Shown in pieces: positions 26,758 to 46,434 of a stretch of DNA of 64,000 bases. Source of the stretch: Candidatus Nomurabacteria bacterium. Lineage in GTDB: Bacteria > Patescibacteriota > Minisyncoccia > Phycocordibacterales > UBA9973. A program made the position numbers and the translations under genes. Below the pieces are notes generated by a model that saw only the letters and a program-made list of their open reading frames with translations, was not told the DNA's origin and did no database searches. Numbering within the stretch: the stretch's first letter is position 1; every line of letters starts with the position of its first letter. Location: the NCBI GenBank assembly GCA_963832025.1, contig CAWHSF010000003.1, positions 15,665-79,664 of the forward strand. Reading direction: 5' to 3'.

Positions 26758-26758
26758 G

Positions 26759-27983: not shown

Positions 27984-27990
27984 AAATATT

Positions 27991-28992: not shown

Positions 28993-29015
28993 CGGCAGGA
29001 AAAAAATATTGAACT

Positions 29016-29978
29016 ATGAAAAAAAAGAAAAAATTATTTTTTTATCTACTATCTTATGCTTTCTCTCCGGTTTTAATCTTTTCTTTTATCTTTTTACCTC
29101 TCTCTTATGTTTTATACACCAATCCTGTTTTCGCAGGCACGGTAACATCAGGTCCTGAGACAGTTTCTGTAACTGCTGTTGTTGGAGGAGGAACAGTAAC
29201 ACAAGAACCCTTGGGCAGTGGTGGTGGCGAACTAAACGGTCCAACCATAACTATCCCACAAACCAGCGTACATTTTTCGGGAGAAGCATATCCAAATGCT
29301 ACTGTTACTCTTTTAAAAGATGGGATAGATGTCACCTCTGTTACCGCGGACAGTGGCGGACTTTTTGATATAACTCTGGAAGAAAAATATGACGGCACGA
29401 TGCTTTATAGTCTGGAAGCTACGGACACCAACGGCCAAGTATCTATTTTAATAAATTATCCTTTAGTGGTAACCAGCGGATATGTTACCGATTTGTCGGG
29501 GATAATATTTCCTCCGACCATTAGTGTAGATAAAATACAAGCGACAGCAGGAAGCTATCTGACAATTTCCGGTTTTGCCTTTCCGAAAAAAAATATGCAA
29601 ATAGTTTTTACCAGTGCAGACAAGCAAACTACAAAAACTTTTAGCTTAGTCGCTCCCGATAATGGCAATTACGACATTACCTTGCCTTTGACAGATTTGC
29701 CGATGGGAAATTATACAGTTTTTATAAAATACCCTGACGATAATCGTCTCAGCGAACTTGTCAGATTTATTATCGGCGATTCAGATATTTCCAGTGTTAA
29801 TACAACTTTAAATTTACCCGGTGACTGTAATTTTGACGGACGAGTTGATTTGGTGGATTTTTCTATCATGGCTTTTTGGTATGAAAAACCCAATCCCCCA
29901 CCGTGTGTAGATTTAAATCATGATGGTATCGTCAACCTGACCGATTTTTCAATTTTAGCATTTTATTGGACAGATTAA
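29016..29978 (+). CDS. secreted Ig-like-repeat protein with a C-terminal dockerin module
   Basis: Signal/TM segment followed by two beta-rich modules. The C-terminus has duplicated Ca-binding segments DCNFDGRVDLVDF and DLNHDGIVNLTDF (DxNxDGxxxxxD twice). Confidence 0.65.
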   Translation: MKKKKKLFFYLLSYAFSPVLIFSFIFLPLSYVLYTNPVFAGTVTSGPETVSVTAVVGGGTVTQEPLGSGGGELNGPTITIPQTSVHFSGEAYPNATVTLLKDGIDVTSVTADSGGLFDITLEEKYDGTMLYSLEATDTNGQVSILINYPLVVTSGYVTDLSGIIFPPTISVDKIQATAGSYLTISGFAFPKKNMQIVFTSADKQTTKTFSLVAPDNGNYDITLPLTDLPMGNYTVFIKYPDDNRLSELVRFIIGDSDISSVNTTLNLPGDCNFDGRVDLVDFSIMAFWYEKPNPPPCVDLNHDGIVNLTDFSILAFYWTD

Positions 29979-30030
29979 ATATATGACCCATTCGATAAAA
30001 ACTCAGGGTCATGGTGATATAATTAAAACC

Positions 30031-30714
30031 ATGAAAAAAAATAAGAAACAAATTTTATTCACTTTGACAATTGTTATTTTAGCCTTTGTTTTCAAGGTAA
30101 ATAGCGCATCTGCCGCAAATTTTGCATTTACTGTTCCCTCTTCTCTTAAGGTCGGAGACAATTTAGATGTGGCAGTAACTGCGGACACCGGTGGAGTTTT
30201 CATAAACTCTGCCGAAGCCACCGTGAATTATGATACCACCTTACTTTCATTTAACGGATATTCTGACAGCAGTTCAGTTATAAAAATTTGGATTAATCCG
30301 CCAAGTGCAGAAAACGGACAAATAACTTTTAGCGGAATAATTCCTGGAGGTGTCGACGGACTTTATGATGCAAGCAAGACAGGATTGAGTCCATTCCCTT
30401 TGGTTCATTTAATCTTCACCGCAAAAAATACTGGAACTGCAAATTTTTCTTTTGCTAATTCACAAATTTTGGAAGATGATGGGGCCGGCACAGCACTTGT
30501 TCATGATAACATCCCTGCAAGTGTCACAATACAGACCAATCCAAATGGCACCAGTGTTCAAAATCCATCAAATAATAGTGCTGAAAACGTCACAAATAAC
30601 AATGCGAAAAATCCGGGAGCTATGCCAGACAGACCCGACCCACTTTTTTGGGTCGTGATATTCTTGTTGATTTCTAGCCTTTTGATATATAAATTGTTAA
30701 AATATAAGGTATGA
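30031..30714 (+). CDS. cohesin-domain protein with a C-terminal TM anchor
   Basis: Signal peptide (KVNSASA/ANF). Cohesin-like pattern: FAFTVPSSLKVGDNLDVAVTADTGGVFINSAEATVNYDTTLLSF. C-terminal TM helix. ATG 30031 is preferred over the track start at 29983. Confidence 0.6.
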   Translation: MKKNKKQILFTLTIVILAFVFKVNSASAANFAFTVPSSLKVGDNLDVAVTADTGGVFINSAEATVNYDTTLLSFNGYSDSSSVIKIWINPPSAENGQITFSGIIPGGVDGLYDASKTGLSPFPLVHLIFTAKNTGTANFSFANSQILEDDGAGTALVHDNIPASVTIQTNPNGTSVQNPSNNSAENVTNNNAKNPGAMPDRPDPLFWVVIFLLISSLLIYKLLKYKV

Positions 30715-31826
30715 AAGATTGGTTCGGTAGAAATACAGCCAAGGTTATTTTCGGTAAGATTTTTGTTTTCATATATTTTCTAAGTATAATTCTTGGCACT
30801 AATATCGCACGAGCGCAAAATACGACCACGCAAACTGCGACATTGTTTTTCAGCACTCCATCCGTGCAAGTAAAAGAGGGTGATAAAGTGACTATCAACG
30901 TAGAAGTAAATTCCGGTGGACAATCCATCAATGCAGTTTCCGGAACAGTGACTTTTCCGGGAAATTTAGTTCATGCCATTTCGCTCAACGATGACAACAG
31001 TATTATAAAACTTTGGACACAAGAACCGAAACTACGCGGAAACGATATTTTATTTGAGGGAGTGATTTTAAATCCCGGCTACGATGGCACAAACGGTCTG
31101 GTCTTCAGTATTACTTTTCAAGCCGAAGCGACTGGCACGGTAAATTTAAATTTTAACAATGGCTCTATCTTGGCAAACAATGGACTCGGCACAAATGTTT
31201 TAGCTACTTTGGGTTCGACTGATTTTAATATCATCCCTGCTCCTTCCTATAACTCCATCGCAACGACACCGACGCCGACACAGCAACTCACAATGATACC
31301 GGTCATCACAAAATATTTTCCAAACATAAACCCAGGTGAAGTTTTATATATCGGAGGCAAGGGTGAACCAAATGCTTTAACCAAAATCACTTTCCAAAAT
31401 ACAGCAGTTAAATCTCTCGGAGAAAAATTTGTTGAATTTTTCCAAAACAAAAAAGAAACACTCGGTGTGGTAACCGTGGAAAATAGCGTAAATGGAAATT
31501 TTAATTATGTCAGTGGAAAAAATTTAGAAGCGGGAGTTTATAACGCCACACCTGCTCTGGTAAATGCCGTCAAAAACACAGACTTGACAGGTGTGTCGGT
31601 GCAATTTTTGGTAAACGATAGTGTTCTGGTTAAAGACATGGTGGTGTTGTTAAATGTTTTAGGACTTCTCATCCCTATCGTATTTTTGATTGTGATTATC
31701 TATTTTATCCCTTGGTATTCGTGGAGAAGGATGCGCATAATGAAAGACAAAATGCTCTTGGAAGAAGAGAAAGTTAACCTCACTGCAGAAGAATTAAAGA
31801 AAAAACCCGAAAATCCTAAGTCTTAA
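30711..31826 (+). CDS. cohesin-domain protein with an extra module and a C-terminal TM anchor
   Basis: Cohesin-like pattern: ATLFFSTPSVQVKEGDKVTINVEVNSGGQSINAVSGTVTFPGNLV. TM helix near the C-terminus plus a charged tail. The start overlaps the previous stop (ATGA). Confidence 0.6.
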   Translation: MKDWFGRNTAKVIFGKIFVFIYFLSIILGTNIARAQNTTTQTATLFFSTPSVQVKEGDKVTINVEVNSGGQSINAVSGTVTFPGNLVHAISLNDDNSIIKLWTQEPKLRGNDILFEGVILNPGYDGTNGLVFSITFQAEATGTVNLNFNNGSILANNGLGTNVLATLGSTDFNIIPAPSYNSIATTPTPTQQLTMIPVITKYFPNINPGEVLYIGGKGEPNALTKITFQNTAVKSLGEKFVEFFQNKKETLGVVTVENSVNGNFNYVSGKNLEAGVYNATPALVNAVKNTDLTGVSVQFLVNDSVLVKDMVVLLNVLGLLIPIVFLIVIIYFIPWYSWRRMRIMKDKMLLEEEKVNLTAEELKKKPENPKS

Positions 31827-31886: not shown

Positions 31887-32013
31887 CTATTAGATATAAT
31901 ATCTACTCCATATTATAATAATATATAGATAAAAGAAGATATCGCCTACCTGAGATAGCATTTTTTGGTATCTTGTTTATCCGAGATGTTATTGTATTTC
32001 TTTGTCTAAATGG

Positions 32014-32092
32014 TCCCGTACGAAATTTTGCTAATAAAGTTTCGTTTATGGGATAAATCTGCTTGTTAAGTTAGTATAATTTTGTACGGGAT
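32014..32092. repeat. IR cassette-related short copy D
   Basis: TCCCGTACGAAAT (32014..32026) pairs with TTTCGTTTATGGGAT (32039..32053). A second arm, TTGTACGGGAT, ends flush with the ATG at 32091. Confidence 0.5.
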
Positions 32093-32465
32093 GGAAAATC
32101 TTAAAAAAGTAATTTCATTGCATCAAGCATCAAATATTTCTGGGTATCACCAGGACTATTTGAGCGCCCTAATACGTAAAAATGAAATAAAGGGGGTGAA
32201 GATGGGAGGCAATTGGTTCACCACCGAGGAGGCAATAAAAAACTATATTTTCAAGCAGCAAATCCGACATAAAAATTGGCTGATTAAATTTTTTCTCTAC
32301 TTTAAAAAGATAAATAAAAATTTTATTTACTCATTGCTTTTTTTGATACTTCTTGCGGTAGGTATATATTTTTACAATAAAAAATTCGGGGGCACGGAAG
32401 CAACGACACCAAACACACCAGCTCCGACTATTAATAATAGTGGCACAGAAGAATTAAAATTCTAA
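32091..32465 (+). CDS. HTH (excisionase/MerR-like) domain protein with one TM helix
   Basis: [46 protein letters not shown] followed by a TM helix ([18 protein letters not shown]). Its stop overlaps the next ATG (TAATG). Confidence 0.55.
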
Positions 32466-35400
32466 TGAAAACTTTTTTTAATTTCAAAAGAATAAATTCC
32501 CGTCATCATATATCTTCTGTTTTTTCTTTTTTATTTTTCGTTTTCTTTGTCCTATCTTCTTTTTTCTATCTTCTATCTCCTGCTTCCGCTATCGCTTACA
32601 CCACCGGTGTGCCATCGATAATAAATTTCCAAGGACGATTGATGGACACAAGTGGCAATCTTTTGGGTGGCTCGGGAACAAGTTATTGTTTTCGTTTTTC
32701 GATTTACGACAGCTTGGACAATACCGGAAGCAATGTAAAATTGTGGCCAGCCGGCACTCCGACAAATAACACTCTCACTGTGAGACAAGGTGTCTTTGAT
32801 GCACAAGTCGGAGTCGCAGATAGTTTAAGCGGATACAATTTCCAGAGCGATAACACCATCTACATGAATGTGGAAGTCGCGGCGCAGATTTCCGGTTCTT
32901 GCTCCGGTGTAACTTACGATACGCTTTATCCCCGCCCACAAATCCTGGCTGCTGCTTTCGCCATCACTGCCGGCACCGTAACTGGATTCGCTCCGGCAGC
33001 CGGAAAAACTTTGACCGTAAATAATTCAATCACTTTGACCGGCACCGATTCCACCACCATGACTTTGCCGACAACTTCCAAAACTCTCGCAGCCAACGAC
33101 GGCAGTAATTGGACTTTTGCTTCTCAAGCAATCGGTGACTTGGCTTACGCAACGAGTACTACTGCTTACGGTAGGTTAGCCGATGTAGCAGCCGGTCAAC
33201 CTTTACTCTCTGGTGGAACTTCTACCGCTCCCGCCTATGCTGGTTACACTTTCTCTGGAACTTCTGCGAAGACTTACACCTTCCCAACTACCACCGCAAC
33301 ATTAGCAAGAACTGACGCCGCGCAAACATTTACCGGAGTGCAAACATTTTCTTCCGCACCGACATTTAGCAGTATCACCGGCAGTACCCAATGCTTGCAA
33401 GTCAACAGCAGTGGTGTGGTCAGTGGCACAAGCGCAGCTTGCGGAGGAGGAGGTGGTTCAACTGCTTGGAGCAGTATCACCAACCCAAGCGGAAATCTTT
33501 CTTTGGCAATGGCTGGTGACACCAGCACTTTCACTTACGGAGCGACAACCGGTTCAGCAAACTTGTTCAACTTAACCGACACCTCTTCCAATACCGGCAC
33601 CGGAGTTTTGTTGAATGTCTCAACTGCCAGTGGTTCAACTTTAAATCCATTTTCCGTGACTACCGCCGGTGCAACAAATCCGAGCTTGTATGTCGGTTCT
33701 AATGGTAACGTCTCAATTGGAACCTCAATTACAAATACTGCAGTTCTGCAAGTACAAGCACCGGTTCCGGAAAGTAATCTTTTTGCTTTTGCGAACCATG
33801 ATTTTTCTCTGGGTAGCGTAGGAACTGCCATGACGATTGATACCGGAACTACCTCCGGAGATACCTATGTGGATATGCAAGCTTACAACGCTGGTGGAGT
33901 TAATGGCGGTCCTTTAGTTTTTAACGCTGCTGGTGGTAATGTCGGGATTGATACAAACGACCCAACTACCGCTCTCACCGTTAATGGGAGTATTTCCAAT
34001 CTCCTTAATCCCAGTTCAGCTTTTTTAAATGTTGTAGGTTCGACATCAATTACTTCTGCTTCCGTGGTCTACGTCTCCGGTAACTATGCCTATGTGGCAG
34101 ATTATACCGGTAATGAACTTGATATTGTTGACATTACCAATCCGAATGCTCCCTATGTGGCTGGCACATTAGGCGGAATTAATCATATCTCTTCCATCTA
34201 CGTTTCCGGTCGTTATGCCTATGTGACGGACAAAAGTATTGGTGACATGACTATCATTGATGTTTCCAATCCGATTTCACCGACTGTGGTCGGTACATTA
34301 ACCGGACTTAATACTCCTACCTCCATCTACGTTTCTGGTCGTTATGCCTATGTAGCGGATAGCGGTAGTGGTGATATGTATGTGATTGATGTTTCCACTC
34401 CGAGATTACCGATTGTGGTTGCCACCTTAACCGGGCTGAGTAGTCCTTCCTCCATCTATGTTTCCGGTCATTATGCCTATGTAGCAGATAGTGGTAGTGG
34501 TCACATGTCTATCATCGATATTTCCGATCCGGTTTCACCGAATGTGATAGGTACAGCAACCGGACTTGGTAGTCCCTCCTCTGTCTATGTCTCCGGTCGT
34601 TATGCCTATGTGACGGATACGGGTAGTGGTAACTTGTATTCCATTGACCTTTCCAACCAAGCTTCTCCGAGTGTGGTTGGTACGCTACCAGGATTTATTA
34701 CTCCAACTGATGTCTATGTTTCTGGTAATTTTGCATATGTAACAGACAGTGACGGTGAACTCGACGTCGTTGATATTTCCGACCCGACTACTCCGATTTA
34801 TGATACATATGCAGGACTTACTGCTCCCGACTCGGTCTATGTCTCCGGTCAGTATGCCTATGTCGCGGATAGTGGTGGCGGCGATATGGCTGTCATTGAC
34901 CTAACCGGAACACAAACAACTTCCTTGACCGCCGGGAGTGCGAACATCGGCAACTTGCAGATTGCTAATGATTCTTTGGTTGGTGGTCAACTGCAAGTAA
35001 ATGGTGCCCTGACAGCCAACGGTGGAAACTTTAACAGTGGAGTTGCAGTAAATGGAAATATTTCCAATACCATTTCATCTTCTTCTCCTCCGACTGTCGT
35101 TGCTACTGCCACCGGGCTGACTAATATCTTAACTGACTATGTCTCCGGTAACTATGCGTATGTAGGAACTGGTACCGGTGGTACTGGTTATATGTATATC
35201 GTTGATATTTCCAATCCGACTGCTCCGAGTGTTGTCGGTACATTATCAGGGGTTGGTAAGATTAATTCTATCTATGTTTCCGGTCAGTATGCCTATGTGT
35301 TAGATGATAGTAATGGCTACATGGATGTCGTTGATATTTCCAATCCGCATGCCCCAAGTGTTGTCGGTACAGTGGTAGGGTTTACTGGTCCTGTATCTAT

Positions 35401-37192
35401 CTATGTTTCCGGTCATTATGCCTATGTGACAGATGCCAATTCTCTGACTTTGTCTGTCATCGATGTTTCCAACCCGACTGCTCCGAATCTCATCGGAAGT
35501 CCATTGTCGCTGACTGCTCCTCTCTTCATCTATGTTTCCGGTCATTATGCCTATGTGACGGAAAGTGGTGGGAGCATGGATATCATTGATGTTTCCAATC
35601 CGTATTCTCTGAGTATTGTCGGTACAGCCACAGGACTTGGTTCTCTTGATGGCAATGTCTATGTCTCCGGTCGTTATGCGTATGTAACAAATACTGCTAG
35701 TAGTGGTGATATGTATGTCGTTGATGTTTCCAATCCAGTTTCTCCAAGTACTGTCGGTACATTAGGACTTTCTTGGCCTCTTGGTATCAATGTCTCCGGT
35801 CATTATGCCTATGTGACGAGTTATGCTGGTGGTGGCATGTATGTCCTTGATGTTTCCAATCCGACTGCTCCAAGTGCTGTTGCTCTTACACTCGGACTGA
35901 CTACTCCTTCTTTTATCAGGGTTTCCGGTCGTTATGCCTATGTGGTGGAATCTACTGCTAGTTCCATGGCTGTCATTGACCTCACTGGTACCCAAACAAC
36001 TTCTCTCACCTCCGGTAGTGCTAACATCGGTAACTTGCAAATTGCTAATGATGCTTTGATTGGTGGTCAACTGCAGGTGAATGGTGGTTTGACGGCAAGT
36101 GGTGGAAACTTTTCGGGGGATGTGGCGACTGAGGGAGCGTTAATTGCAAATTATCTTTCTGTTGGTCCTGGTTCTCCGTTTTCAGTAGATTCCTCCGGAG
36201 ATGTTTTAGCTTCCGGAGATGTTTCCGCTGGGTCATTGCAACTTTCTAATGTTACCGGATCCACGCAATGTCTGCAAGCAGATTCCTCAGGAAATATTAC
36301 TGGCACCAGTTCACCCTGTGGAAGCGGTGGTGGTCTCACTGTCGGTACCACCACTGTCAGCTCCGGAACATCGGGATATGTCTTATATGACAACGGAGGA
36401 ACTTTGGGTAACTTGAATGTCACCGCCACCCCAACCGCTTCCACCATCGCCGAATGGGATGCGAACAAGAATTTGTCGGGGAATGCTTTTATTCCATCTT
36501 TCACAACAACTGCAACTGCTGGAACTACAACTACCATGACAATTGCTTCAACTGAATATCAATTTTGGACTGGAGTAAACACAAATCAAACTGTAAAACT
36601 TCCTACAACTTCTGTTGCTGCTGGTGCAACTTATGTTATAGAAAATCAAAGTACTGGTACAGGCGCGGTAACAGTGCAATCTTCCGGAGCAAACCAGATT
36701 ACTATTTTAGCTCCGGGAACAAGTGGAACATTTACTTCAACAAAAGCTGCTCCGACTGCAGCTGCTGATTGGGGATATATTTATAATGGAGCAACTGCTG
36801 CTGCTGGTGGCTCCCTCACTACTTCCGGAGCTTACCCGATTACTTTGACAGGAACAGCTTCGACAACGGTTACGTTGCCTACTACGGGAACCTTGGTAAA
36901 CTCTACAGTAGCAACTCTTTCTTCTTTGACTTCTACCGGAACGATTACGACTGGTGGATTGGGAACGGGGGCAGTTATTGGAGGAGTGACTATGACTCTC
37001 GGCTCAGATGCTTCTTATGATATTTATTATCGAGGTTCCGGTGGAGTTCTGACCCGTCTCGCAAATGGTACTTCTGGTCAATATTTGGGCGCAAATACCG
37101 GCGCCGCTCCGAGCTGGCAGACGCCAGCGGGTGGTCTCACTGTCGGTACCACCACTGTCAGACTCCGGAACATCGGGATATGTCTTATATGA
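32465..37192 (+). CDS. giant surface protein with two blocks of LVIVD-type beta-propeller repeats and tail-fibre-like repeats
   Basis: N-terminal signal/TM segment. About 15 copies of YVSG.YAYV.D...G.M.V.DVSNP..P.VVGT. Each block is followed by [27 protein letters not shown]. The ORF ends at a frame break inside duplicated DNA. Confidence 0.75.
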
Positions 37193-37932
37193 CAACGGAG
37201 GAACTTTGGGTCACTTGAATGTCACCGCCACCCCAACCGCTTCCACCATTGCCGAATGGGATGCAAACAAAATTTGTCGGGGAATGCTTTTATTCCATCT
37301 TTCACAACAACTGCAACTGCTGGAACTACAACTACCATGACAATTGCTTCAACTGAATATCAATTTTGGACTGGAGTAAACACAAATCAAACTGTAAAAC
37401 TTCCTACAACTTCTGTTGCCACTGGTCAACTTATGCTATAGAAAATCAAAGTACTGGTCCAGGCGCGGTCAAGTGCAATCTTCCGGAGCAAACCAGATTA
37501 CTATTTTAGCTCCGGGACACAACTGGAACATTTACTTCGGCAAAAGCTGCTCCGACTGCAGCTGCTGATTGGGGATATATTTATAATGAGAGCAACTGCT
37601 GCTGCTGGTGCTACCCTCACTATTTCCAATACACCGCTTACTTTCACAGGCACAGCTTCGCACGGTTTACGTTGCCTACTACGGGAACCAGTTGCATACA
37701 CTCTACAATGTAGCAACTACTTTCTTCTTTAACCTTTGGAACAATTACGACTGGTGGATTGGGAACGGGGGCAGTTATTGGATGGAGTGACTATGACTCT
37801 CGGCTCAGATGCTTCTTATGATATTTATTATCGAGGTTCCGGTGGAGTTCTGACCCGTCTCGCAAATGGTACTTCTGGTCAATATTTGGGCGCAAATACC
37901 GGCGCCGCTCCGAGCTGGCAGACGCCAGCGGG
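36332..37932 (+). repeat. tandem duplication of an ~800-bp coding unit; the second copy is riddled with indels
   Basis: 36332..37132 recurs at 37133..37932. The first ~25 bp and last ~146 bp are identical, while the middle differs by many small indels and substitutions (for example cagctccgg versus cagactccgg). Confidence 0.8.
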
Positions 37933-40900
37933 AGGATCACAAACTCCATGGACTGGAAATATAAATGCTGCTGGATATACTCTCTTTGGTAACAACACCG
38001 CTGGAGGTGCACTAAACCTAGCAAGTACTAGTGGTACAGGTTCCAATGATGTGGTTAACATTAAAGGTGGTACGGCTGGAGGAACAACAATCGCTAGCTT
38101 CTTTGGGGCGGGAACGTATGCTGGAAGAGTTGGAATTGGAACGACGACACCGAGTCAATTATTTAGCGTAGGGAGTACCAGTCAATTTACAGTTGATTCT
38201 TCGGGTAATTTGAATTCCCAGACATTATCCATTGGGGCCGGACTAACGTCAGTTGTGGTCAGTGGAACTGGAACCGGTTCAGATGGTAGTCCAAATGGAA
38301 CTTATTATTTTAGAGGCGTTGAAAACGGGGCAAACTACTACCAGCTTGGTAGCAGTAGTTGGTATATAACTTATAACGGTTCCGGCACTTGGGGTATTTG
38401 TATTTATCTCAATTCCAGCACTTGCAGCACGTATGGCAAGTATTTTTCTCAATCCGGTACCGTTCCTACTCCGCCTAACAACAGTTCTTGGTCTGACACC
38501 GTTTACACAGGGTCAATTACGACTGCCGCAGGTACGTCAAGTAATCTGACTGTCGATAACGCAGGTGACATAACATCCTACGGAACTTTAACTGCAGTTT
38601 CTCTTGCCACGACTTCCGGCCAACCATTTGAATTGCCGACGAGCAATGCTACCGCCGGATGTCTGAAAACAAGCGCTACAGGACAAATGTCTGTCGCTAC
38701 TTGCGGAGATGTAGACAATCAATCATTCAATGCCAATGGTACTTATTCCATGCCTTCTGGTGCCTTGATGATAGTTGTCGAAACTTGGGGTGGTGGCGGC
38801 GGTGGTGGCGGCGGCGCAGGTGGCAACAACTTAAACAGTGCTCACGCTGGAGGAGGAGGTGGAGGAGGTGCATCTTATGTAAATAGTATTTTTTCAGCAA
38901 CAACACTAGGCACACCGGGAACAACCACGCTTCAAGCTATCGTGGGTGGAGGAGGTGCCGGAGGTGGAGGAGGAAATAATGTAAACGGCACTGCTGGAAA
39001 TTCTGGTGGTTCAAGTTGTTTATCTACCACAAATTGTACAAGTGGAACCATTTACGTGGAAGGATGGGGAGGTGGAGGTGGCGCTCAGGGTGCAATATCA
39101 AACACCCAAGGTGCCGGTGGTGGTGGAGGAGGAGGTGCTGAAGCAGTTGGAGGTAATGCAAGTACAACAACAGGTGGTACCGGAGGAGCGCCACAAGGTT
39201 CTACAGCCGGTACAGCAAACTCAGGATACGGAGGTGCCGGAGGTGCCACTTCAACAAATGCGGCGGTAAATGGAGCATCAGCACAGTATGGAGGCGCAGG
39301 CGGAGGCGCATCAACAACAACAGGAGCAAATGCATCAGGTAACGGAGGTGGCTCAGTAATCGGAGGCTCGGGTGGAGGTGGAGGAGGTTCGGTCGCTGTC
39401 ACAACTTATGCAAAAGAAAATGGAGGTGCCGGAGGTACTGGTCAAGCCATTGCAGGTGGAGGTGGAACCGCAGGAACAACCAATGGCGCTGGAGGAAGTA
39501 ATGGAAATCCCGGCGTTGGAGGAGGAGGAGATGGTGGAGGTGGAGGTGCAACGAACAGCACAGGTACGGGAGGTACGGGAGGTACGGGAGGAGCGAGAGG
39601 TGGCGGTGGCGGTGGCGGTGGCGCAACTGGTACAGGAGGTCATGGAGGTACAGGAGGCACAGGAGGTGCAGGTTTTGTGCGCGTCTGGTCATACATGGGA
39701 CAAGGTGCCGACTTGGCAGAAATATATGGCACGATGGATCCAACTTTGTCTCCGGGTGATATCGTCGCAGTTGACTCCGCCATGCAAGCCGGAGTAAAAA
39801 AGAGTAGTGTCGCTTATGATTCTACTGTGATCGGAGTCGTTTCCACTAACCCTGGCATCGTTATTGGTAATGTTTCAGACCCGGGAGCCACACCAGTGAT
39901 GGTAGCACTTGCCGGACGTGTACCGATGAAAGTAAATATGGAAAATGGTCCGATTAAGAGCGGAGATTATCTAACGGCATCTTCAACTCCGGGTGAAGCG
40001 ATGAAAGCCACCAAGGCAGGATTAGTAATCGGAGAAGCAATTACTCCGTACAACACCACTGACATGCCGGGCATCGTGATGGCATTTATTAAGGCCGGAC
40101 CTTCAAACGGTTCAAAACTTACCGACTTGATTCCCGGACTGACGACAGATGATGGAACAACTACAGACAGCTCAACAACGAATAGTAATTCAACAACATC
40201 TATTTCTCCACCGACCACGACTGATACGATTGGAACATCTTCTACTACAACTGCGACTACACCATCTGCTCCGACCCAAACGATAGAACAGCAAGCTCTC
40301 GCCTATTTCAACACCGGTCGCGCGGTACTTGCCACGCAAGTTGATTTATCGGAAGTAACCACCGACAGAGTCAGTGCCGGATTGGAAGTTATTACTCCGG
40401 ACTTATATGCCACAAACGTACACACCGACACAATTCAATCCGCAACCGGAGACAACATCGGTTTGATTTTGGATGATAGCGGAGAGTTTACAATCGGTAA
40501 ACAAACAATTAGCACAGTGGTAAATCCCGATGGCACCACCACACCTACGACAATATACACCCCGGAAATAACGATGGATAATCTGGGCAACGCTGTCTTT
40601 AGCGGCGGCTTGACCATCGGAACTCCGCAACAACCAAACGGAATTACGATGTATGACACTACGACTGGCAGCCCATATTGTTCTCGCATCACAAATGGAA
40701 CGATGGTCACCTCTCCGGGCAAGTGTAGTGACATCTTGGGATTACCAATACAAAATACCGCTTCGGTAATAAACAGTACGAATCCAAATTCAGGTAATAA
40801 TAATTCTTCAAACAATACGAACAACACTACAACAACCTCCACGGATAACACCACAGCACCTGCAGACACTTCGGACACTTCGGACACTTCGACAAGCACA

Positions 40901-41164
40901 GACAATCCTTCTTCTACAGATACAACTACTACCCCGGCAACGACCCCGAACCAATCCTCACAAAGTTCGGATGGTACGGGGCAGGCTTCCGATACTCCGG
41001 CAAGCACACCAGCAGCAACACCTGGCACCTCTACAACTACTCCGGCAGTTACTTCTCCGCCGGCAACAACAGACACGACTACGACACCCAGTCCGACAGC
41101 TGATACTTCGACTGCTCCAGCCTCGCCACCATCCACTGACACCACTGCCACGCCGGGTTCATAA
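37736..41164 (+). CDS. giant surface protein, probable continuation of 32465..37192: glycine-rich domain, beta-rich module, S/T/P-rich tail
   Basis: The N-terminus repeats the C-terminus of the previous ORF ([51 protein letters not shown]). It has YSMPSGALMIVVETWGGGGGGGG ... GAGFVRVWSY as in 23593... The tail is extremely Thr/Ser/Pro-rich. Confidence 0.75.
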   Translation: MEQLRLVDWERGQLLDGVTMTLGSDASYDIYYRGSGGVLTRLANGTSGQYLGANTGAAPSWQTPAGGSQTPWTGNINAAGYTLFGNNTAGGALNLASTSGTGSNDVVNIKGGTAGGTTIASFFGAGTYAGRVGIGTTTPSQLFSVGSTSQFTVDSSGNLNSQTLSIGAGLTSVVVSGTGTGSDGSPNGTYYFRGVENGANYYQLGSSSWYITYNGSGTWGICIYLNSSTCSTYGKYFSQSGTVPTPPNNSSWSDTVYTGSITTAAGTSSNLTVDNAGDITSYGTLTAVSLATTSGQPFELPTSNATAGCLKTSATGQMSVATCGDVDNQSFNANGTYSMPSGALMIVVETWGGGGGGGGGAGGNNLNSAHAGGGGGGGASYVNSIFSATTLGTPGTTTLQAIVGGGGAGGGGGNNVNGTAGNSGGSSCLSTTNCTSGTIYVEGWGGGGGAQGAISNTQGAGGGGGGGAEAVGGNASTTTGGTGGAPQGSTAGTANSGYGGAGGATSTNAAVNGASAQYGGAGGGASTTTGANASGNGGGSVIGGSGGGGGGSVAVTTYAKENGGAGGTGQAIAGGGGTAGTTNGAGGSNGNPGVGGGGDGGGGGATNSTGTGGTGGTGGARGGGGGGGGATGTGGHGGTGGTGGAGFVRVWSYMGQGADLAEIYGTMDPTLSPGDIVAVDSAMQAGVKKSSVAYDSTVIGVVSTNPGIVIGNVSDPGATPVMVALAGRVPMKVNMENGPIKSGDYLTASSTPGEAMKATKAGLVIGEAITPYNTTDMPGIVMAFIKAGPSNGSKLTDLIPGLTTDDGTTTDSSTTNSNSTTSISPPTTTDTIGTSSTTTATTPSAPTQTIEQQALAYFNTGRAVLATQVDLSEVTTDRVSAGLEVITPDLYATNVHTDTIQSATGDNIGLILDDSGEFTIGKQTISTVVNPDGTTTPTTIYTPEITMDNLGNAVFSGGLTIGTPQQPNGITMYDTTTGSPYCSRITNGTMVTSPGKCSDILGLPIQNTASVINSTNPNSGNNNSSNNTNNTTTTSTDNTTAPADTSDTSDTSTSTDNPSSTDTTTTPATTPNQSSQSSDGTGQASDTPASTPAATPGTSTTTPAVTSPPATTDTTTTPSPTADTSTAPASPPSTDTTATPGS

Positions 41165-41177: not shown

Positions 41178-41576
41178 ATGAAAAAAAATATTTTAAAAAT
41201 ATTAGTGTTTGCATCGCTTTTGATTTTTTTTGGTTCGTATCTGTTGTATAAGATTCCTTTGCCGGGAGCGGAAGATTTGCCCAGACAAATGATGAACGGC
41301 AAAAATATTCTGGCGGGACAATTCAATGTAATTACCCAGAATGTTTATTCTTATGTTGAACCCACTCAACCTTTTGCCAATCATCATTGGTTTTATGGAG
41401 TCATCGCATACTTGATGTATCTGGCAATCGGCTGGGACGGAATGGTTATTTTCAAAACCTTATTTTTTTTGTTGATTTTTGCTTTGTTGTTTAAAATTAC
41501 AATTAAAAAAGCCGATTTCTGGTTGGCTTCCTTTTTCTCTATACCGTTTATTCTGCTTCTTATAGGCCGGAAGTGA
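41178..41576 (+). CDS. GT-C-like polytopic membrane protein, N-terminal fragment
   Basis: TM-rich ORF. Deleting one C in GGCCGG (about 41566..41571) fuses it in-frame to 41590..43191 (…LLLIGGSDFRPEMFSYFF…). Confidence 0.5.
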   Translation: MKKNILKILVFASLLIFFGSYLLYKIPLPGAEDLPRQMMNGKNILAGQFNVITQNVYSYVEPTQPFANHHWFYGVIAYLMYLAIGWDGMVIFKTLFFLLIFALLFKITIKKADFWLASFFSIPFILLLIGRK

Positions 41577-41589
41577 TTTCCGTCCGGAA

Positions 41590-43191
41590 ATGTTTTCTTA
41601 TTTCTTTATTGTTTTATTTATTTACGCGCTGTTTAAATTCGAAGAAAATCCCAATTCCAATAAAGTTTTCTGGCTCATTCCGCTTGAATTGCTTTGGGTA
41701 AACACCCATTTATATTTCGGCATCGGTATCTTAATCGTTCTCGGATTTTTAATTGAACAACTTATTTTAAACCGTAAAAAATTAAAGGAAAATAAATTAA
41801 TAAAAAAATTTTCTTGGTTATTGATCGTTTTGATTCCGACTATTTTTATCAATCCGTATGGCTTGGGCGGGGCCATTCATTCTCTGATTGTAAACAAGGA
41901 TCCTAACTTCCCTATCAATAGTGCCGAACTCGGTTCAATATCCAGCATTTTGCAATCTTCACCCAAGATAGATAATTTGATCGCGGTCATTTTTGAATGG
42001 ATGCTTGTACCGCTCGCGATTAGTTTTATTGTAGCTTTAATTTTTAGGTGGAAAAAGAAACAACCTTTGTTTTCCAGACATTATATTTTTTATTTACTGG
42101 GAAGCGTTTCCACCGCGATCTTAAGCTTTGACATTATCAGAAGCATCCCGTTGTTTGCCCTAATCTTTTTGCCGGCAATCTGCAGTAATTTTCAAGATAT
42201 TTTTGTGGAATGTAAAATTTGGCTTAATAAAAAATCCGCAGAGCTGACAAAAGTCATCAGCATAGCGTCTCTCGTTTTGTTTGTTTTAATTCCTATATTT
42301 TATTTGACGTTTACGATACGGCCAATCATTTCTCCTTATAATTATTTTGGAGTGGGACTCGCTCCCAACTCAGAAAGTTCTGCGGACTTTTTTATAAATA
42401 ATAATCTGACAGGTCCGATTTTCAACGATACGGATGTGGGCAGTTATTTGATTTATTATTTATACCCAAAAGAACAGGTGTTTACCGACAACCGTTTTGG
42501 TGATGCATATTCCGCCGATTTTTTTGCTAATACTTATAACCCGATGATAAAAGACGATACGGTCTGGAATCAGGAATTGGCTAAATATAATTTTAATGTG
42601 ATTTTTTTCAACCAATATGACGGTGGCGATGATATCAGGAATTTTCTATACCGCAGATATTATGACCCGGCTTGGGTTTTAGTTTATGCCGATAATTACA
42701 ATGTCATCTTTGTCAGAAATATTCCGGCTAATCAAGCTGTCATTAATAAATATGGTATCAATAATAACAATATGACCGAAAGATTGAGTCCTCTTTTAAA
42801 TTCTAGCGACCCTGATACACAGCTGGCCGCAGCTGATATTTACAGTATGTTTGGCCAAGTCGATTTGGCGGTAAATGAATACTTGAAATTTGTTTCTGAA
42901 ATGCCAGCACGTGGAAAAGTGTGGATGGTTCTGGGTAGAATAGAGCTCACTCGTTCCGACCAACAAAATTCTAATCCGTATTTAGCGGCCACATATTTAG
43001 AACATGCAATTGCGGACGGATGGGTAACTCCGACTTCACTGAGCTACCTAGCTTTGGCCTATTATCGCACCAGTCAAATAGATAGAGCAAAAGCAATGGT
43101 TAAAAAAGAATTGCAAATAGACCCGAGTAGTACTGATGGAGCAGAATGGCTCAGTGTTTTCGCTAAACAAGCTACGCAGCAAAATCAATAA
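41590..43191 (+). CDS. GT-C-like (PMT/ArnT/DUF2723-type) membrane protein with a C-terminal TPR region
   Basis: About 8 TM helices, a soluble domain, then TPR-like repeats (AADIYSMFGQVDLAVNEYLKF..., LALAYYRTSQIDRAKAMVKKEL). The family assignment is tentative. Confidence 0.45.
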   Translation: MFSYFFIVLFIYALFKFEENPNSNKVFWLIPLELLWVNTHLYFGIGILIVLGFLIEQLILNRKKLKENKLIKKFSWLLIVLIPTIFINPYGLGGAIHSLIVNKDPNFPINSAELGSISSILQSSPKIDNLIAVIFEWMLVPLAISFIVALIFRWKKKQPLFSRHYIFYLLGSVSTAILSFDIIRSIPLFALIFLPAICSNFQDIFVECKIWLNKKSAELTKVISIASLVLFVLIPIFYLTFTIRPIISPYNYFGVGLAPNSESSADFFINNNLTGPIFNDTDVGSYLIYYLYPKEQVFTDNRFGDAYSADFFANTYNPMIKDDTVWNQELAKYNFNVIFFNQYDGGDDIRNFLYRRYYDPAWVLVYADNYNVIFVRNIPANQAVINKYGINNNNMTERLSPLLNSSDPDTQLAAADIYSMFGQVDLAVNEYLKFVSEMPARGKVWMVLGRIELTRSDQQNSNPYLAATYLEHAIADGWVTPTSLSYLALAYYRTSQIDRAKAMVKKELQIDPSSTDGAEWLSVFAKQATQQNQ

Positions 43192-44204
43192 TGGAAACAA
43201 AAACTAAAATTATCGGGATTCTTTTGACTTATAAACACGTAAATCTGGTGGAAGATATTTATCGTCGATTACCAAAAGGTGTTTTTGATGAAGTAATTAT
43301 TTTCGATGATGCATCAAGGGATGGAATAGAAAAAGTTGCAGAGAAACTAAACTTGCCGATTTTTATTCAAGAAAAAAATCTGGGTTATGGAGGCAATATA
43401 AAATACAGCCTAAAAAAATGCGTGGAAAGAGGCGCGGATTATATGGTGGAAATTCATGGTGATGGACAATATGGCGCGGATTCAATAATTCCCGGCTTGG
43501 AGAAAATAAAAAGCGGCTATGATTTCGTTTTGGGTTCCAGATTCACCAATATGGGGCAAGCGCTAAGAGACAAGATGCCCTTACTCACTTATCTCGCAAA
43601 TCGTGGACTTTCTTTTTTTGACCGTTTGGTTTTACAAATTCCTCTCACCGAATTTCACACTGGATTTAGAGTTTATAGTCGCAAGTTGGTAGAAATAGTT
43701 GATTTTAGTCCGACGGCCAACGATGATTTATTTAGTTTTCAAATTATCGCTATGGCTAAATATCACAATCTAAGAATTGCCGAAGTGCCGGTGCGTTGTG
43801 ATTATGGCAAAGACCACACCTCTATTACCTTCCGCCGCGCCGCAAAATATGCTTTTCAAACTTTTAGTGTGTTATCTCAATATATTTTGGCGAGATTGGA
43901 ATGGAGAATAAATTATTTCACCATTAAATCTATGAATCCGCGTTTTAAAAAATATTTTAAATTTATTATCTCCGGGGCATCTGTCCGCCTTGACCAGTCT
44001 GGTGTTTTTTTATATTTTTATCACTTTCTTCAATATCTGGTATCTGTTCGCTTCTGGAATGTCTTTTATACGTCTCAATCATGGTTGGTTTTTATCTGCA
44101 AAAATATATTACTTTCAAAGACTCATCCAAGGGAAATGGTAAAAACGAGAAGCTGGATTGTTTTTATTTCTTTTCTTCTTACTAAATCTTTTGATAAATA
44201 TTAG
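43191..44204 (+). CDS. family-2 glycosyltransferase (polyprenyl-phosphate sugar synthase-like)
   Basis: Motifs ILLTYKH, FDDASRDG and EIHGDGQY (DxD-type). The C-terminal ~90 aa of the track ORF read through a decayed GtrA-like region. Confidence 0.7.
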   Translation: METKTKIIGILLTYKHVNLVEDIYRRLPKGVFDEVIIFDDASRDGIEKVAEKLNLPIFIQEKNLGYGGNIKYSLKKCVERGADYMVEIHGDGQYGADSIIPGLEKIKSGYDFVLGSRFTNMGQALRDKMPLLTYLANRGLSFFDRLVLQIPLTEFHTGFRVYSRKLVEIVDFSPTANDDLFSFQIIAMAKYHNLRIAEVPVRCDYGKDHTSITFRRAAKYAFQTFSVLSQYILARLEWRINYFTIKSMNPRFKKYFKFIISGASVRLDQSGVFLYFYHFLQYLVSVRFWNVFYTSQSWLVFICKNILLSKTHPREMVKTRSWIVFISFLLTKSFDKY

Positions 44205-44353
44205 TGCTTATGTCCTTCTTTGTCGGAATATTAAATTTTGAAAAAATGCTGGCAAAAGTCTGCACACTCAGCATTCTCGCTTGTTGGAATTATTTTATCT
44301 ACGAAAAATTGGTCTTCGTGAAAAGAAATATAGAAAATCTGCCATTGGGGTAA
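43930..44353 (+). pseudogene. GtrA-like flippase-family region broken over several frames
   Basis: GtrA-like pieces occur in different frames: FKFIISGAS / ALTSLVFFYIFITFFNIWYLFASGMSFI / SIMVGFYLQKYITFKD / LAKVCTLSILACWNYFIYEKLVF. Confidence 0.55.
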
Positions 44354-44356
44354 AAG

Positions 44357-45601: not shown

Positions 45602-45695
45602 AATTTAATCTTTGTATACTACTCTAAATATGCTATAATTTCAATGTTTTTAAACAATCTCTATGAAAACAGGAAGGAAGGTAGCAGGCGCGAAA

Positions 45696-46430
45696 ATGAA
45701 AGGGGTGATATTGGCAGGAGGCCTCGCCACTCGCCTGCATCCAGTCACGCTTACCGTAAACAAGCATCTCTTGCCGGTTCACGACAAACCGGTTATTTAT
45801 TATGTAATTGAAAAAATGGTGGAAGTTGGTATTGAAAAAATAATGATAGTCACTTCGCCGGCTCATCTGCCGGATTTTGTAAAAATTCTTGGTTCAGGTA
45901 AACACTTTAAAATAAAAAACAGTAAAAAACAATTGCAAATTGTTTATGGCATCCAAAACAAGCCCGAAGGTATTGCGCAAGGGCTTTGGATTGCCAAAGA
46001 TTACATTGGTAAAGATAATTGCATGTTATGCTTGGGCGACAATATCGTCGAAGACAATTTAAATAAATATGTGAAGAATTTCAAAACCGGTTCATTCATC
46101 TTTTTGAAAAAAGTAAAGAACCCGAAATTTTTTGGAATTGCGGAAACCGATAAAAAAGGAAGAGTACTAAAGATTGAGGAAAAACCCAAAAACCCAAAAT
46201 CAAACTTGGCTGTAATCGGAGTTTATCTGTATGACAATACCGTCTTTGATAAATTTAAAGGCATAAAAAAATCGGCCCGAGGAGAATATGAAATTACTTA
46301 TATTAACAATAAATATATAAAACAGGGAAAAATGTCGGCGCACCTACTCACCTCCCCGTGGTTTGATACGGGAAGTTTTGAAGGTTTAAAAGCAGCCAAT
46401 AATTATATAAGCAAGAAAAATAACGGATAA
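45696..46430 (+). CDS. sugar-phosphate nucleotidyltransferase (glucose-1-phosphate thymidylyltransferase-like)
   Basis: MKGVILAGGLATRLHPVT signature. ATG 45696 is preferred over the track start at 45663. Confidence 0.75.
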   Translation: MKGVILAGGLATRLHPVTLTVNKHLLPVHDKPVIYYVIEKMVEVGIEKIMIVTSPAHLPDFVKILGSGKHFKIKNSKKQLQIVYGIQNKPEGIAQGLWIAKDYIGKDNCMLCLGDNIVEDNLNKYVKNFKTGSFIFLKKVKNPKFFGIAETDKKGRVLKIEEKPKNPKSNLAVIGVYLYDNTVFDKFKGIKKSARGEYEITYINNKYIKQGKMSAHLLTSPWFDTGSFEGLKAANNYISKKNNG

Positions 46431-46434
46431 TTTT

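Follow-up and report, generated by a model that had tools for sequence, protein, structure and literature searches.

It is well supported by the sequence that the two open reading frames ORF1 and ORF2, which follow one another in the window (the whole 64-kb stretch of DNA analysed here), derive from one ancestral gene. The reading that we favour, with modest confidence, combines two propositions: this gene encoded a secreted CPR surface fibre made from tail-fibre parts, and it was recently broken by a degenerate extra unit. Its product is best read as a Sec-exported, probably trimeric surface fibre of the tail-fibre type, belonging to a conserved CPR surface-protein cluster. The features of the locus are listed below; the coordinates of both ORFs are those of the earlier note, and the duplicate that it had placed between them was recovered by blastn.

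32082..32465, + strand: small upstream partner gene, 127 aa, with a weakly HTH-like N-terminus and one TM segment
32465..37192, + strand: ORF1, 1575 aa, ATG start, the N-terminal 60% of the fibre gene
32465..32590, + strand: predicted signal peptide, aa 1-42, hydrophobic core aa 15-37, ASA|IA site
32591..32974, + strand: conserved N-terminal domain, ORF1 aa 43-170
32975..34051, + strand: N-proximal fibre region, ORF1 aa 171-529, with tail-fibre-type 'LTLTGTD.TTMT.P' motifs
34052..35074, + strand: LVIVD beta-propeller 1, seven blades of 43 aa and a closing motif (…QLQVNG)
35117..36139, + strand: LVIVD beta-propeller 2, seven blades and a closing motif as in propeller 1
36335..37135, + strand: unit A, in-frame 267-aa tail-fibre-type module, ORF1 aa 1291-1557
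37136..37936, no strand assigned: copy B, degenerate tandem copy of the 801-nt unit
37736..41164, + strand: ORF2, 1142 aa, TTG start within copy B, the C-terminal 40% of the fibre gene
37937..38716, + strand: post-unit fibre segment, ORF2 aa 68-327
38717..39703, + strand: glycine-rich domain, ORF2 aa 328-656, 43% Gly, with conserved Cys and aromatic landmarks
39704..40135, + strand: putative gp12-D4-like autochaperone module (the beta module), ORF2 aa 657-800, predicted cleavage motif GA|DLAE
40136..40282, + strand: Thr/Ser-rich linker, ORF2 aa 801-849, 42% T and 18% S
40283..40747, + strand: conserved C-terminal module, ORF2 aa 850-1004, 'TDRVSAGLEVITP'
40748..41164, + strand: Thr/Ser/Pro-rich tail, 138 aa and stop codon

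The break lies in a direct repeat of the 801-nt unit A, whose second copy, copy B, is 94-96% identical to the first (blastn, E=0) and shares 149-nt identical tracts with it at its ends. Copy B carries about seven, and at least seven, single-base frameshifts, an in-frame TAG and a divergent patch at 37610-37740; ORF1 reaches its stop after 18 out-of-frame codons of copy B, and the last ~200 nt of the copy form the opening of ORF2. The exact removal of one 801-nt unit yields an uninterrupted ORF of 2,632 codons, and the product predicted with copy B repaired has 2,899 aa, so that the intact protein would have had 2,632 aa with one unit and 2,899 aa with two. As assembled, ORF1 and ORF2 are identical to the database proteins P0002 and P0001, respectively.

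The proposal of the earlier note that the two ORFs are one protein split by a decayed duplicate is borne out by this restored frame and by homologues that are single ORFs. Related CPR loci carry such ORFs of 1,590, 1,862 and 3,120 aa. The intact 3,120-aa ORF of locus L001, from a Candidatus Saccharibacteria MAG, matches both ORF1 and ORF2 and shares with the split gene its first eight residues (MKTFFNFK), the N-terminal domain, the beta module and the C-terminal module. At L085, an intact 1,862-aa ORF matches ORF1 (42%) and ORF2 (59%), and its neighbours are homologues of the window genes at 23593, 26853, 27991, 29016, 29983, 30711 and 47467; L083 is arranged in the same way, its giant ORF having matched only ORF2 in that comparison. 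Two of the related loci come from Candidatus Saccharibacteria MAGs. It is because the single-ORF relatives at L001 and L085 match both halves, and because all three loci are syntenic with the window, that we derive ORF1 and ORF2 from one gene. The modules of the two halves are also joined elsewhere: eight homologues are single chains that include the N-terminal, Gly-rich and beta modules, and in four, such as P0240 (2,644 aa), LVIVD blocks and their closing motif stand in one chain with the beta module.

The locus has the marks of a pseudogene, with intact single-ORF relatives, many frame-breaking lesions, and a second half that possesses neither its own signal peptide nor promoter enrichment upstream. 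The distribution of the lesions complicates the matter, since copy B has about 10 frame-breaking lesions in its 800 nt and none is found in ORF1 (4.7 kb) or in the 3.2 kb of ORF2 downstream, which points to a very recent event, to an assembly artefact, or to an ORF2 that is still under selection. In-situ neutral decay at the rate of copy B predicts tens of lesions in ORF2, where there are none, and this counts against our reading in its simplest form. With the 3.2 kb downstream still intact, copy B was probably damaged before its arrival, or else the break itself is young. ORF1 alone would give an exported stalk deprived of its tip and autochaperone, and ORF2 alone would have no export signal, so that the gene, as assembled, would have been inactivated very recently; one crossover in which the identical 149-nt tracts recombined would bring back the full-length gene.

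That the gene is intact in the organism, with one unit or with two in-frame units, and that its split is an artefact of assembly or consensus, is a serious possibility, to which we give less credence than to a genuine break. On this view, the lesions of copy B would stem either from insufficient polishing or from an assembly path, chimeric or of low coverage, across a tandem repeat of 801 bp whose copies are nearly identical. Their confinement to the repeat copy, with 7.9 kb of clean flanking ORF, agrees with this, as does the presence of the perfect tract nearest the unique downstream sequence, where junction-spanning reads could anchor. When one copy of a repeat is cleaner, reads tend to map to it and the other copy stays unpolished, as is known to happen in hybrid polishing. 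Copy B differs from unit A by 24 substitutions (13 transitions and 11 transversions) and 13-20 small indel events, a ratio far above that expected of ordinary pseudogene decay; the high indel ratio and the right part of the patch (37660-37730), which reads as unit A with scattered 1-2 nt insertions, both fit a poorly polished repeat copy. However, none of the indels falls in a homopolymer, and the other 63 kb of the window are densely coding, with long intact ORFs and no scattered frameshifts, which argues against a generally noisy long-read assembly. Moreover, one substitution in two is synonymous, and the motif encoded in the left part of the patch (~37607-37657), ATLTISNTPLTFTGTAS, is a natural alternative of a type known from homologues; this points to a real, distinct sequence. 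The junction between the end of unit A and the start of copy B is itself a novel sequence that must have had read support; its string was not found in JGI metagenomes or IMG/VR.

A diversity-generating retroelement, with unit A and copy B as template and variable repeat, was also considered and rejected, the substitutions being of all types, rather than adenine-only, and accompanied by the 13-20 indels.

ORF2 could also be a gene in its own right, ORF1 encoding an exported, propeller-bearing stalk, ORF2 being translated separately under purifying selection, and copy B remaining as a neutral spacer. Selection on both halves would explain the restriction of the lesions to copy B, and it suits both the 3.4 kb over which ORF2 stays open despite heavy decay just upstream and an in-frame ATG at 37793 with GGAG before it. 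We nevertheless hold two separately functional genes to be improbable, and the least likely account of the split, because ORF2 has neither a signal peptide nor a convincing independent start. No hydrophobic segment, and neither a TM segment nor a signal peptide, is present in ORF2, although its domains are without exception of extracellular type; no promoter enrichment was found upstream of it, the gene is a single ORF at each of the three related loci examined, and the autochaperone would be parted from most of the fibre that it has to fold.

The N-terminal part of the fibre gene would provide for export. The signal or TM segment announced by the earlier note is a single N-terminal hydrophobic segment with an ASA|IA site, and it is the sole hydrophobic window across ORF1 and ORF2. 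A Gram-positive wall-anchored or otherwise C-terminally anchored adhesin was rejected, ORF2 ending in its Thr/Ser/Pro tail with no hydrophobic window. The domain that follows the signal peptide is also N-terminal in P0111 (80% identity), P0091, P0118, P0131, P0132 and others, as well as in the 3,120-aa protein of L001. The N-proximal fibre region after it (aa 171-529) gave no match to a Pfam family, and the secondary BLAST matches of proteins bearing the unit fall on ORF1 aa 170-330.

The two blocks of some seven to eight LVIVD repeats that had been described, each with its closer, proved to be blocks of exactly seven. The assignment to LVIVD propellers of 7+7 blades is strong on sequence grounds: the Pfam HMM (PF08309) gives E=8.5e-96 and 313.5 bits against a cut-off of 20.2 over 13 stretches, a motif count gives 14 blades with a 43-aa period that matches the 129-nt period of the DNA repeat, and Beta_propel (PF09826) scores 33.6 bits, over its cut-off of 22.4. 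The closing motifs stand at ORF1 aa 809 and 1169, and the DNA that encodes them (34886-35032 and 35966-36112) is 84% identical. With other LVIVD surface proteins the product shares these blades of 43 aa in two blocks of seven; it differs from them in that the propellers sit in the middle of a tail-fibre-type chain and in that each is closed by a specific motif common to the homologues P0240 and P0256. We know of no function established for LVIVD propellers.

The tail-fibre-like character noted earlier is upheld by the relatives of the 267-aa unit among BFVD phage proteins (E down to 3e-13, with names that include tail fiber, Gly-rich domain and IMC-domain) and in 201 IMG/VR contigs, where identity reaches 64%. 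Unit A has about 110 matching proteins in the database; the search of cultured-phage genomes gave no match. Homologues of the unit sit at the tail-fibre position in phage genomes: P0006, with 65% identity over 230 aa, precedes an M15 endolysin on a phage-like contig of 35.5 kb that also carries Phage_rep_O, NinG and Dam. In the monomer model of the unit, a core beta-domain (residues 55-150) reaches a pLDDT of 82-94 and the flanks remain below 50, as expected for interdigitated segments.

These relationships, since the best characterised relatives of the unit, the Gly-rich domain and the beta module are phage tail fibres and tailspikes, raise the question of a prophage tail-fibre gene, the ORFs then being part of an integrated phage or its remnant rather than of a cellular surface structure; tRNA genes at 23.1-23.4 kb and 49.6-50.0 kb could be added in its favour. 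We regard this as very improbable. The protein has a Sec signal peptide, no capsid, terminase, portal, integrase or lysis family was matched by Pfam among the window ORFs scanned, and the gene is flanked by housekeeping genes (CTP synthase, FtsEX, release factor, GatA-type amidase), with no phage-family match among the flanking ORFs scanned, all of which argues for a cellular gene. The gene lies, furthermore, within a surface-protein cluster whose conservation extends to three further bacterial loci, where it stands beside single-ORF homologues; one of these loci adjoins gyrB.

In the C-terminal half of the cellular fibre gene, the post-unit fibre segment had no family match and, in the collected set, matched only itself. 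The Gly-rich domain, reported earlier and present at its 43% Gly, has homologues with E down to 1e-83 and resembles phage tail fibres weakly in sequence: Gly_rich_2 (PF21722) gives E=0.0056 and 17.2 bits, under its cut-off of 24.3, over profile positions 4-222 of 226, and the profile of the family finds the tail-fibre proteins of cyanophage Pam3, its best solved relatives, at E=0.0014-0.0018 with high compositional bias. Among known systems, the unit and the Gly-rich domain come nearest to Gly-rich-tipped phage tail fibres (PF21722; Pam3 7YPX/7YFW) and to tail-fibre proteins of uncultured Caudovirales. Compared with those fibres, the protein is 2-3 times longer, adds a signal peptide, a conserved cellular N-terminal domain, two LVIVD propellers and S/T/P tails, lies in a cellular genomic context, and scores under the Gly_rich_2 cut-off.

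The beta-rich module was correctly seen in the earlier note, which called it unassignable; according to profile and Foldseek searches, it is homologous to the C-terminal autochaperone of phi29 gp12 and would be a putative trimerisation and self-cleavage domain. The module profile matches phi29 gp12 at E=0.0028, placing 'GaDlAE' on the 'SDFAE' of gp12 and D-x-A-E on D692-E695, and D, A and E are each conserved in at least 90% of 33 family members. The AF2 model (pLDDT 90) has the fold of gp12 D4, tandem beta-tulips: Foldseek places 3suc first (E=8.1e-5, TMq 0.60), then 3gqh_A (E=7.1e-4, TMq 0.55), and beta-tulip capsid decoration proteins after them. Against Peptidase_G2 (PF11962), the module scores 16.4 bits, under the cut-off of 25, with E=0.0063. 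An endosialidase-type intramolecular chaperone was rejected, Peptidase_S74 (PF13884) having no match in ORF2, whole or in pieces, with the E threshold raised to 10.

In gp12, the C-terminal domain acts as an autochaperone and is removed by cleavage once it has folded (PMC3357383; bioRxiv 10.1101/216911). The module resembles D4 of this pre-neck appendage, or tailspike (PF11962; 3SUC, 3GQH), in fold and profile, in a nearly invariant D-x-A-E that aligns with D692-F-A-E, with which the released fragment begins (boundary S691|D692), and in its place C-terminal to a fibre or spike that presumably needs trimerisation. It differs in scoring under the Pfam cut-off, in being followed by 342 aa (median 365 aa in relatives), in occurring in two or more copies in 73 collected relatives, some with 2-3, and in its passenger, which consists of Gly-rich and fibre modules with LVIVD propellers and not of a pectin-lyase-like beta-helix; gp12 is a virion component, whereas the protein here is Sec-exported and cellular, and its self-cleavage is only predicted. 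Its position and multiple copies suit a module that serves trimerisation only no less well than they suit a chaperone that is cleaved. The beta-module family is very large, and Pfam covers it poorly.

The end of ORF2 has two features that the earlier note did not describe, the Thr/Ser-rich linker (ORF2 aa 801-849) and the C-terminal module (aa 850-1004, 'TDRVSAGLEVITP'). This module gave no family match; it follows the beta module in 39 collected homologues, P0091 and L001. The Thr/Ser/Pro tail is present as had been described, its length being 138 aa and not the ~150 aa announced.

The intact chain that we propose would begin with the Sec signal peptide, the N-terminal domain, a fibre shaft and two seven-bladed LVIVD propellers, and would continue with one or two 267-aa modules, a further shaft segment, a Gly-rich tip-type domain, the gp12-type autochaperone, and the C-terminal module with Thr/Ser/Pro-rich tails. 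The fibre chain would be exported, and the gp12-like tandem beta-tulip domain would nucleate the trimerisation of the fibre upstream of it; self-cleavage of this domain at GA|DLAE may follow, so that the Gly-rich domain would become the distal tip. Anchoring of the fibre on the cell would fall to the N-terminal domain, along with the products of the neighbouring conserved surface-protein cluster. The relatives suggest a large, uncharacterised family of giant secreted fibres of Saccharibacteria and other CPR, built from phage tail-fibre blocks.

A possible role of the fibre as an adhesin, or as the host-contact organelle of an episymbiont, as the earlier note had suggested, may be inferred from the two Candidatus Saccharibacteria MAG loci and from the analogy with phage receptor-binding proteins. 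The essential surface proteins or 'adhesins' identified by Tn-seq in the cultivated saccharibacterium Southlakia epibionticum are extracytoplasmic and belong to a Saccharibacteria-type genome, as the fibre would, a likeness by description only, drawn from part of the published account (PMC10633639). The essential set given there includes a dockerin-domain protein, and the cluster in the window has one too (29016-29978); the same part of that account names VCBS, dockerin and Fn3 proteins, type IV pili and a T4SS, with no mention in it of a tail-fibre-like giant (PMC10633639).

The small gene upstream of the fibre gene, whose stop overlaps the ORF1 start, matches HTH_17 at only E=0.05. It is 58% identical to the 132-aa gene directly adjoining the intact 3,120-aa ORF of L001, which that gene precedes, and a promoter-like site lies near it at 31891-31919.

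The two neighbouring ORFs lie on the forward strand, at exactly the positions that the earlier note had assigned to them. Between them stands the frameshifted second copy (copy B) of a 267-aa module, hereafter the unit, whose first copy (copy A) is in frame inside ORF1:

32465..37192, forward strand: ORF1, 1575 aa, ATG start
36335-37135, forward strand: unit, copy A, 801 nt, corresponding to ORF1 aa 1291-1557
37136-37936: unit, copy B, degenerate, directly abutting copy A
37736..41164, forward strand: ORF2, 1142 aa, TTG start

The two copies are 94-96% identical in the DNA comparison, and no third copy of the 801-nt unit is found within the 64-kb window. ORF1 stops 18 codons inside copy B, and ORF2 opens about 200 nt upstream of the end of this copy. 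The exact deletion of one unit yields an uninterrupted ORF of 2,632 codons, while the repair of copy B gives a predicted product of 2,899 aa, in agreement with the joint product of about 2,900 aa put forward previously.

On the basis of sequence comparison, ORF1 and ORF2 can be considered with high confidence as one gene in the ancestral state. Among the homologous proteins pooled from two large searches, eight carry the beta module in one chain with the N-terminal module and the Gly-rich domain (e.g. P0118, 1,862 aa), and four carry it in one chain with LVIVD blocks ending in the same closing motif (e.g. P0240, 2,644 aa). The scan of species-representative genomes led to two related loci, both in Candidatus Saccharibacteria MAGs. 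At the related locus L001, one intact ORF of 3,120 aa begins with MKTFFNFK, as does ORF1, and shares the N-domain, the beta module, the C-terminal module and the low-complexity tail with the window protein; the 132-aa gene directly 5' of it is 58% identical to the window gene 32082-32465, which abuts ORF1 in the same arrangement. At another locus, L085, one ORF of 1,862 aa matches both ORF1 (42%) and ORF2 (59%) and adjoins homologues of the window genes 47467, 23593, 26853, 27991 (47%), 29016 (45%), 29983 and 30711. The linkage is the same at L083, whose giant ORF matched ORF2 only in that comparison. The single-chain homologues and the single ORF at these loci bear out the earlier claim of one split gene, and the shared neighbours make the giant gene a component of a conserved surface-protein cluster. 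That the window would instead hold two genes, with ORF2 separately under selection, is improbable: ORF2 has no signal peptide, no promoter enrichment is seen upstream of it, and the giant gene is a single ORF in all three related loci examined.

The distribution of the lesions bears on the origin of the split. About 10 frame-breaking lesions are present in the 800 nt of copy B, against none in ORF2 (3.2 kb) and none in ORF1 (4.7 kb), whereas neutral decay in place at the rate of copy B would predict tens of lesions in ORF2. We lean slightly towards a real and very recent event, copy B having either been degenerate when it was imported or come in as a minor-population allele. The remainder of the window is cleanly coding, the 13-20 small indel events that separate copy B from copy A all lie outside homopolymers, and half of the 24 substitutions are synonymous (12 synonymous and 12 non-synonymous in the frame of A). 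Furthermore, copy B contains a divergent patch whose left part (~37607-37657) codes for a plausible alternative motif (ATLTISNTPLTFTGTAS); compared with copy A, this motif lies closer to the family consensus 'K.LT.SN.LTL.GTD'. Copy B is therefore a real, distinct sequence. The very high indel-to-substitution ratio of copy B, and the resemblance of 37660-37730 to unit A with sprinkled insertions, point to a repeat copy poorly resolved in the assembly, an explanation that we regard as rather unlikely. The exact 23-nt string at the unit end is absent in the JGI metagenomes and IMG/VR, so that neither offers a second, independently assembled junction. In its assembled state, the ORF1 product would be exported but would lack the tip and the autochaperone, ORF2 would be non-exportable, and the locus would be a pseudogene. 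Whether young pseudogene or repeat-assembly problem, such a split is ordinary and matters mainly as an annotation warning.

Several other readings of the broken frame were rejected. Programmed frameshifting or read-through is incompatible with some 10 independent lesions between the frames. Copy B also contains an in-frame TAG. An alternative genetic code with UGA as a sense codon was discarded, as long ORFs end at all three stop codons and a release-factor gene is present. Hypermutation by a diversity-generating retroelement was rejected on account of the indels and of a substitution spectrum that is not A-specific. Silent-cassette antigenic variation was set aside, since a frameshifted donor would be harmful and the window holds only one extra copy.

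Outside the unit and the Gly-rich domain, the following parts of the chain can be delineated:

ORF1 aa 15-37: hydrophobic segment, predicted signal peptide with an ASA|IA site
ORF1 aa 43-170: conserved N-terminal domain, shared with P0111 (80%), P0091 and L001
ORF1: two LVIVD propellers (PF08309, E=8.5e-96), fourteen 43-aa blades, 7+7
ORF2 aa 657-800: beta module
ORF2, after the beta module: T/S linker
ORF2, after the T/S linker: conserved C-terminal module ('TDRVSAGLEVITP'), found in 39 collected relatives
C-terminal: T/S/P tail, 138 aa

The signal or transmembrane segment announced by the earlier note corresponds to the one hydrophobic segment of ORF1, and ORF2 contains none; the two blocks of about 7-8 LVIVD repeats correspond to the 7+7 blades, each block ending in a shared closing motif that finishes ...GQLQVNG. 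Searches of Pfam and PHROGs left the N-terminal domain, the N-fibre, the unit, the post-unit segment and the C-module without a family. The closest relative of the ORF1 N-terminus, P0111 (813 aa, on a 3,161-bp ENA contig), is 80% identical over 312 aa and becomes Arg/Pro-rich and out-of-frame-looking after about residue 690, which suggests a frameshift or a chimera there too.

The unit and the Gly-rich domain both have relatives among phage tail fibres. In the structure model, residues 55-150 of the unit form a confidently predicted beta domain. The tail-fibre likeness proposed for these repeats is supported by matches to BFVD phage proteins named as tail fibre, Gly-rich-domain or IMC-domain (E down to 3e-13); the cultured-phage genomes of INPHARED contain no match. 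Relatives of the unit occur in about 110 database proteins. One relative lies in tail-fibre position on a 35.5-kb phage-like contig, upstream of an M15 endolysin, and IMG/VR holds relatives on 201 contigs, whose G+C varies widely. In many relatives, identity over the last 54 aa of the unit amounts to 80-93%. The Gly-rich domain is, by its sequence homologues (E down to 1e-83), a real conserved domain; Gly_rich_2 scores under the Pfam cut-off, and among solved structures the best matches are to tail-fibre proteins of cyanophage Pam3 (E ~0.0015, with high compositional bias). A motif 'C-G-S-G-G-G / LTVGTTT(V/I)(S/T)SG' is repeated at module boundaries, namely at ORF1 aa 1286-1300 (~36320-36365), at the start of copy B (37136) and at P0111 aa ~315-330, where it joins a different downstream module than in ORF1. 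This motif looks like a conserved linker for module exchange.

The beta module had been described as beta-rich and left without assignment. Profile and fold lead to the autochaperone of phi29 gp12. A profile built from 33 members matches gp12 (6qz9_A, E=0.0028) and, at E=0.012, the C-terminal fragment released from it (3gqh_A); D-x-A-E, nearly invariant in the module, aligns on gp12 D692-F-A-E. The sequence itself gave no match when compared directly with the PDB, gp12 being reached only by the family profile. The AF2 model (pLDDT 90) has pre-mature gp12 as its best PDB match (3suc, E=8e-5, TM 0.60), followed by 3gqh and then by beta-tulip capsid decoration proteins. In gp12, the domain acts as an autochaperone of tandem beta-tulips: it drives the assembly of the trimer and is afterwards cleaved off (bioRxiv 10.1101/216911; PMC3357383), the last residue of mature gp12* being 691 (PMC6542822). 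For the cleavage details, the PDB chain boundaries were used in addition. As quoted in bioRxiv 10.1101/216911, the structure paper reports sequence homology of the gp12 D4 region to 'some bacterial adhesion proteins'. The beta module thus shares with gp12 the predicted fold and the D-x-A-E at the cleavage boundary; in contrast to gp12, it is not C-terminal in the window protein and is present in 2-3 copies in some relatives, which weakens its description as a cleaved chaperone and leaves that of a trimerisation module unaffected. Among cultured-phage genomes (INPHARED), only PA5oct-type jumbo-phage virion proteins match it (36%). An exhaustive HMMER search at E up to 1e-3 returned 20,337 clusters; the proteins reach 5,766 aa, and the module usually lies 300-450 aa from the C-terminus. 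The window protein belongs to a very large family, of which this module alone shows over 20,000 clusters, and assigning the module improves the annotation of thousands of giant proteins so far labelled 'hypothetical'.

If phage fibres are taken as the model, the N-terminus would be the proximal end of the fibre and the C-terminal part the distal one. Once exported by Sec, the chain upstream of the gp12-like domain would assemble into a parallel trimer nucleated by that domain, with the two propellers and the globular domains of the unit decorating the shaft. If the D-x-A-E is active, a cut at GA|DLAE (ORF2 A658|D659) would free the C-terminal ~480 aa and leave the Gly-rich domain exposed as a tip. 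Candidates for the anchoring and modification of such a fibre are found among the neighbouring genes:

23593-31826, forward strand: upstream run of seven secreted or membrane proteins
41178-41576, forward strand: 132-aa ORF with multiple hydrophobic segments, directly downstream of the fibre gene
41590-43191, forward strand: 533-aa ORF with multiple hydrophobic segments and a TPR-like C-terminus
43191-47406: four sugar-related genes

The upstream run opens with a 634-aa protein carrying a Gly-rich domain of the same type, 41% identical to that of ORF2, whose C-terminal domain is shared by two paralogous secreted proteins (380 and 376 aa). It also includes a TM protein of 333 aa that faintly matches WxLIP_PGBD, one Big_6 + dockerin protein and two cohesin-like proteins. 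In L085 and L083, homologues of most of the proteins of this run adjoin the unbroken giant gene. The paralogues, the TM protein, the Big_6 + dockerin protein and the cohesin-like proteins are anchoring candidates, only on matches at sub-threshold or domain level. Downstream, the ORFs 41178-41576 and 41590-43191, 13 nt apart in different frames, look like one polytopic GT-C-like membrane protein frameshifted near 41566-41590; if so, a second broken gene would directly follow the fibre gene. The sugar-related genes encode a GT2 resembling polyprenyl-phosphate sugar synthases (PpgS/AglJ type), a methyltransferase (reverse strand), an RmlA-like nucleotidyltransferase and RmlB (377 bits, over the cut-off). 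Together with the TPR protein, they could plausibly constitute a glycosylation module for the T/S-rich parts.

The LVIVD propellers, phage tail-fibre modules, Gly-rich tail-fibre domains and gp12 autochaperone are all known kinds of parts. Our searches of the literature on CPR and Saccharibacteria brought up no account of the fibre family, its conserved cluster or its combination with propellers. The surface proteins named in the accessible part of a Saccharibacteria Tn-seq study (PMC10633639) are others (VCBS, dockerin, Fn3, type IV pili, T4SS), and the host-contact components named for CPR episymbionts in the portions of the literature at hand are only type IV pili and a few 'adhesins'. A prophage origin was rejected, given the housekeeping flanks, the conserved cellular synteny and no phage-family match among the scanned ORFs. 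The window protein is best classed as a putative cellular, Sec-exported giant fibre of the phage receptor-binding-protein type, disrupted here; the roles of 'adhesin' and 'host-contact organelle' are hypotheses. The family puts the receptor-binding toolkit of phages to use in a cellular protein that is secreted, and belongs to a conserved surface-protein cluster. Should host contact be mediated by these fibres, module swapping with phages could change the host range directly, and the family would supply candidates, open to testing, for how ultrasmall CPR episymbionts recognise and hold their host cells.

A more speculative reading, which we consider a long shot, goes further. Saccharibacteria and other CPR episymbionts would assemble their host-contact fibre out of pieces of phage receptor-binding proteins, namely tail-fibre modules, a Gly-rich tip and a self-cleaving autochaperone of the gp12 type. 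These pieces would be exchanged with phages through conserved linkers, for which the unit start motif and the 90%-conserved unit end motif are candidates. The split would then be a revertible OFF allele: both copies of the unit hold two identical 149-nt tracts (36470/37271 and 36983/37784), and one crossover between such tracts would delete the dead copy and restore the 2,632-aa gene, so that populations could lose and then regain the fibre.

Two further features of the window concern its housekeeping genes. The 23S rRNA match at 62912-64000 (reverse strand) takes up 1,089 nt of DNA for 730 model positions (2196-2925), which implies an insertion of ~360 nt in the 3' part of the 23S gene; insertions in CPR rRNA genes have often been reported. 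The release factor gene (22156-23085, reverse strand), which directly abuts a tRNA-Thr (23086-23159, reverse strand), is short (308 aa), and its PCRF match begins at profile position 95; its N-terminal part may lie in another frame, as in the RF2-type programmed frameshift, or be missing.
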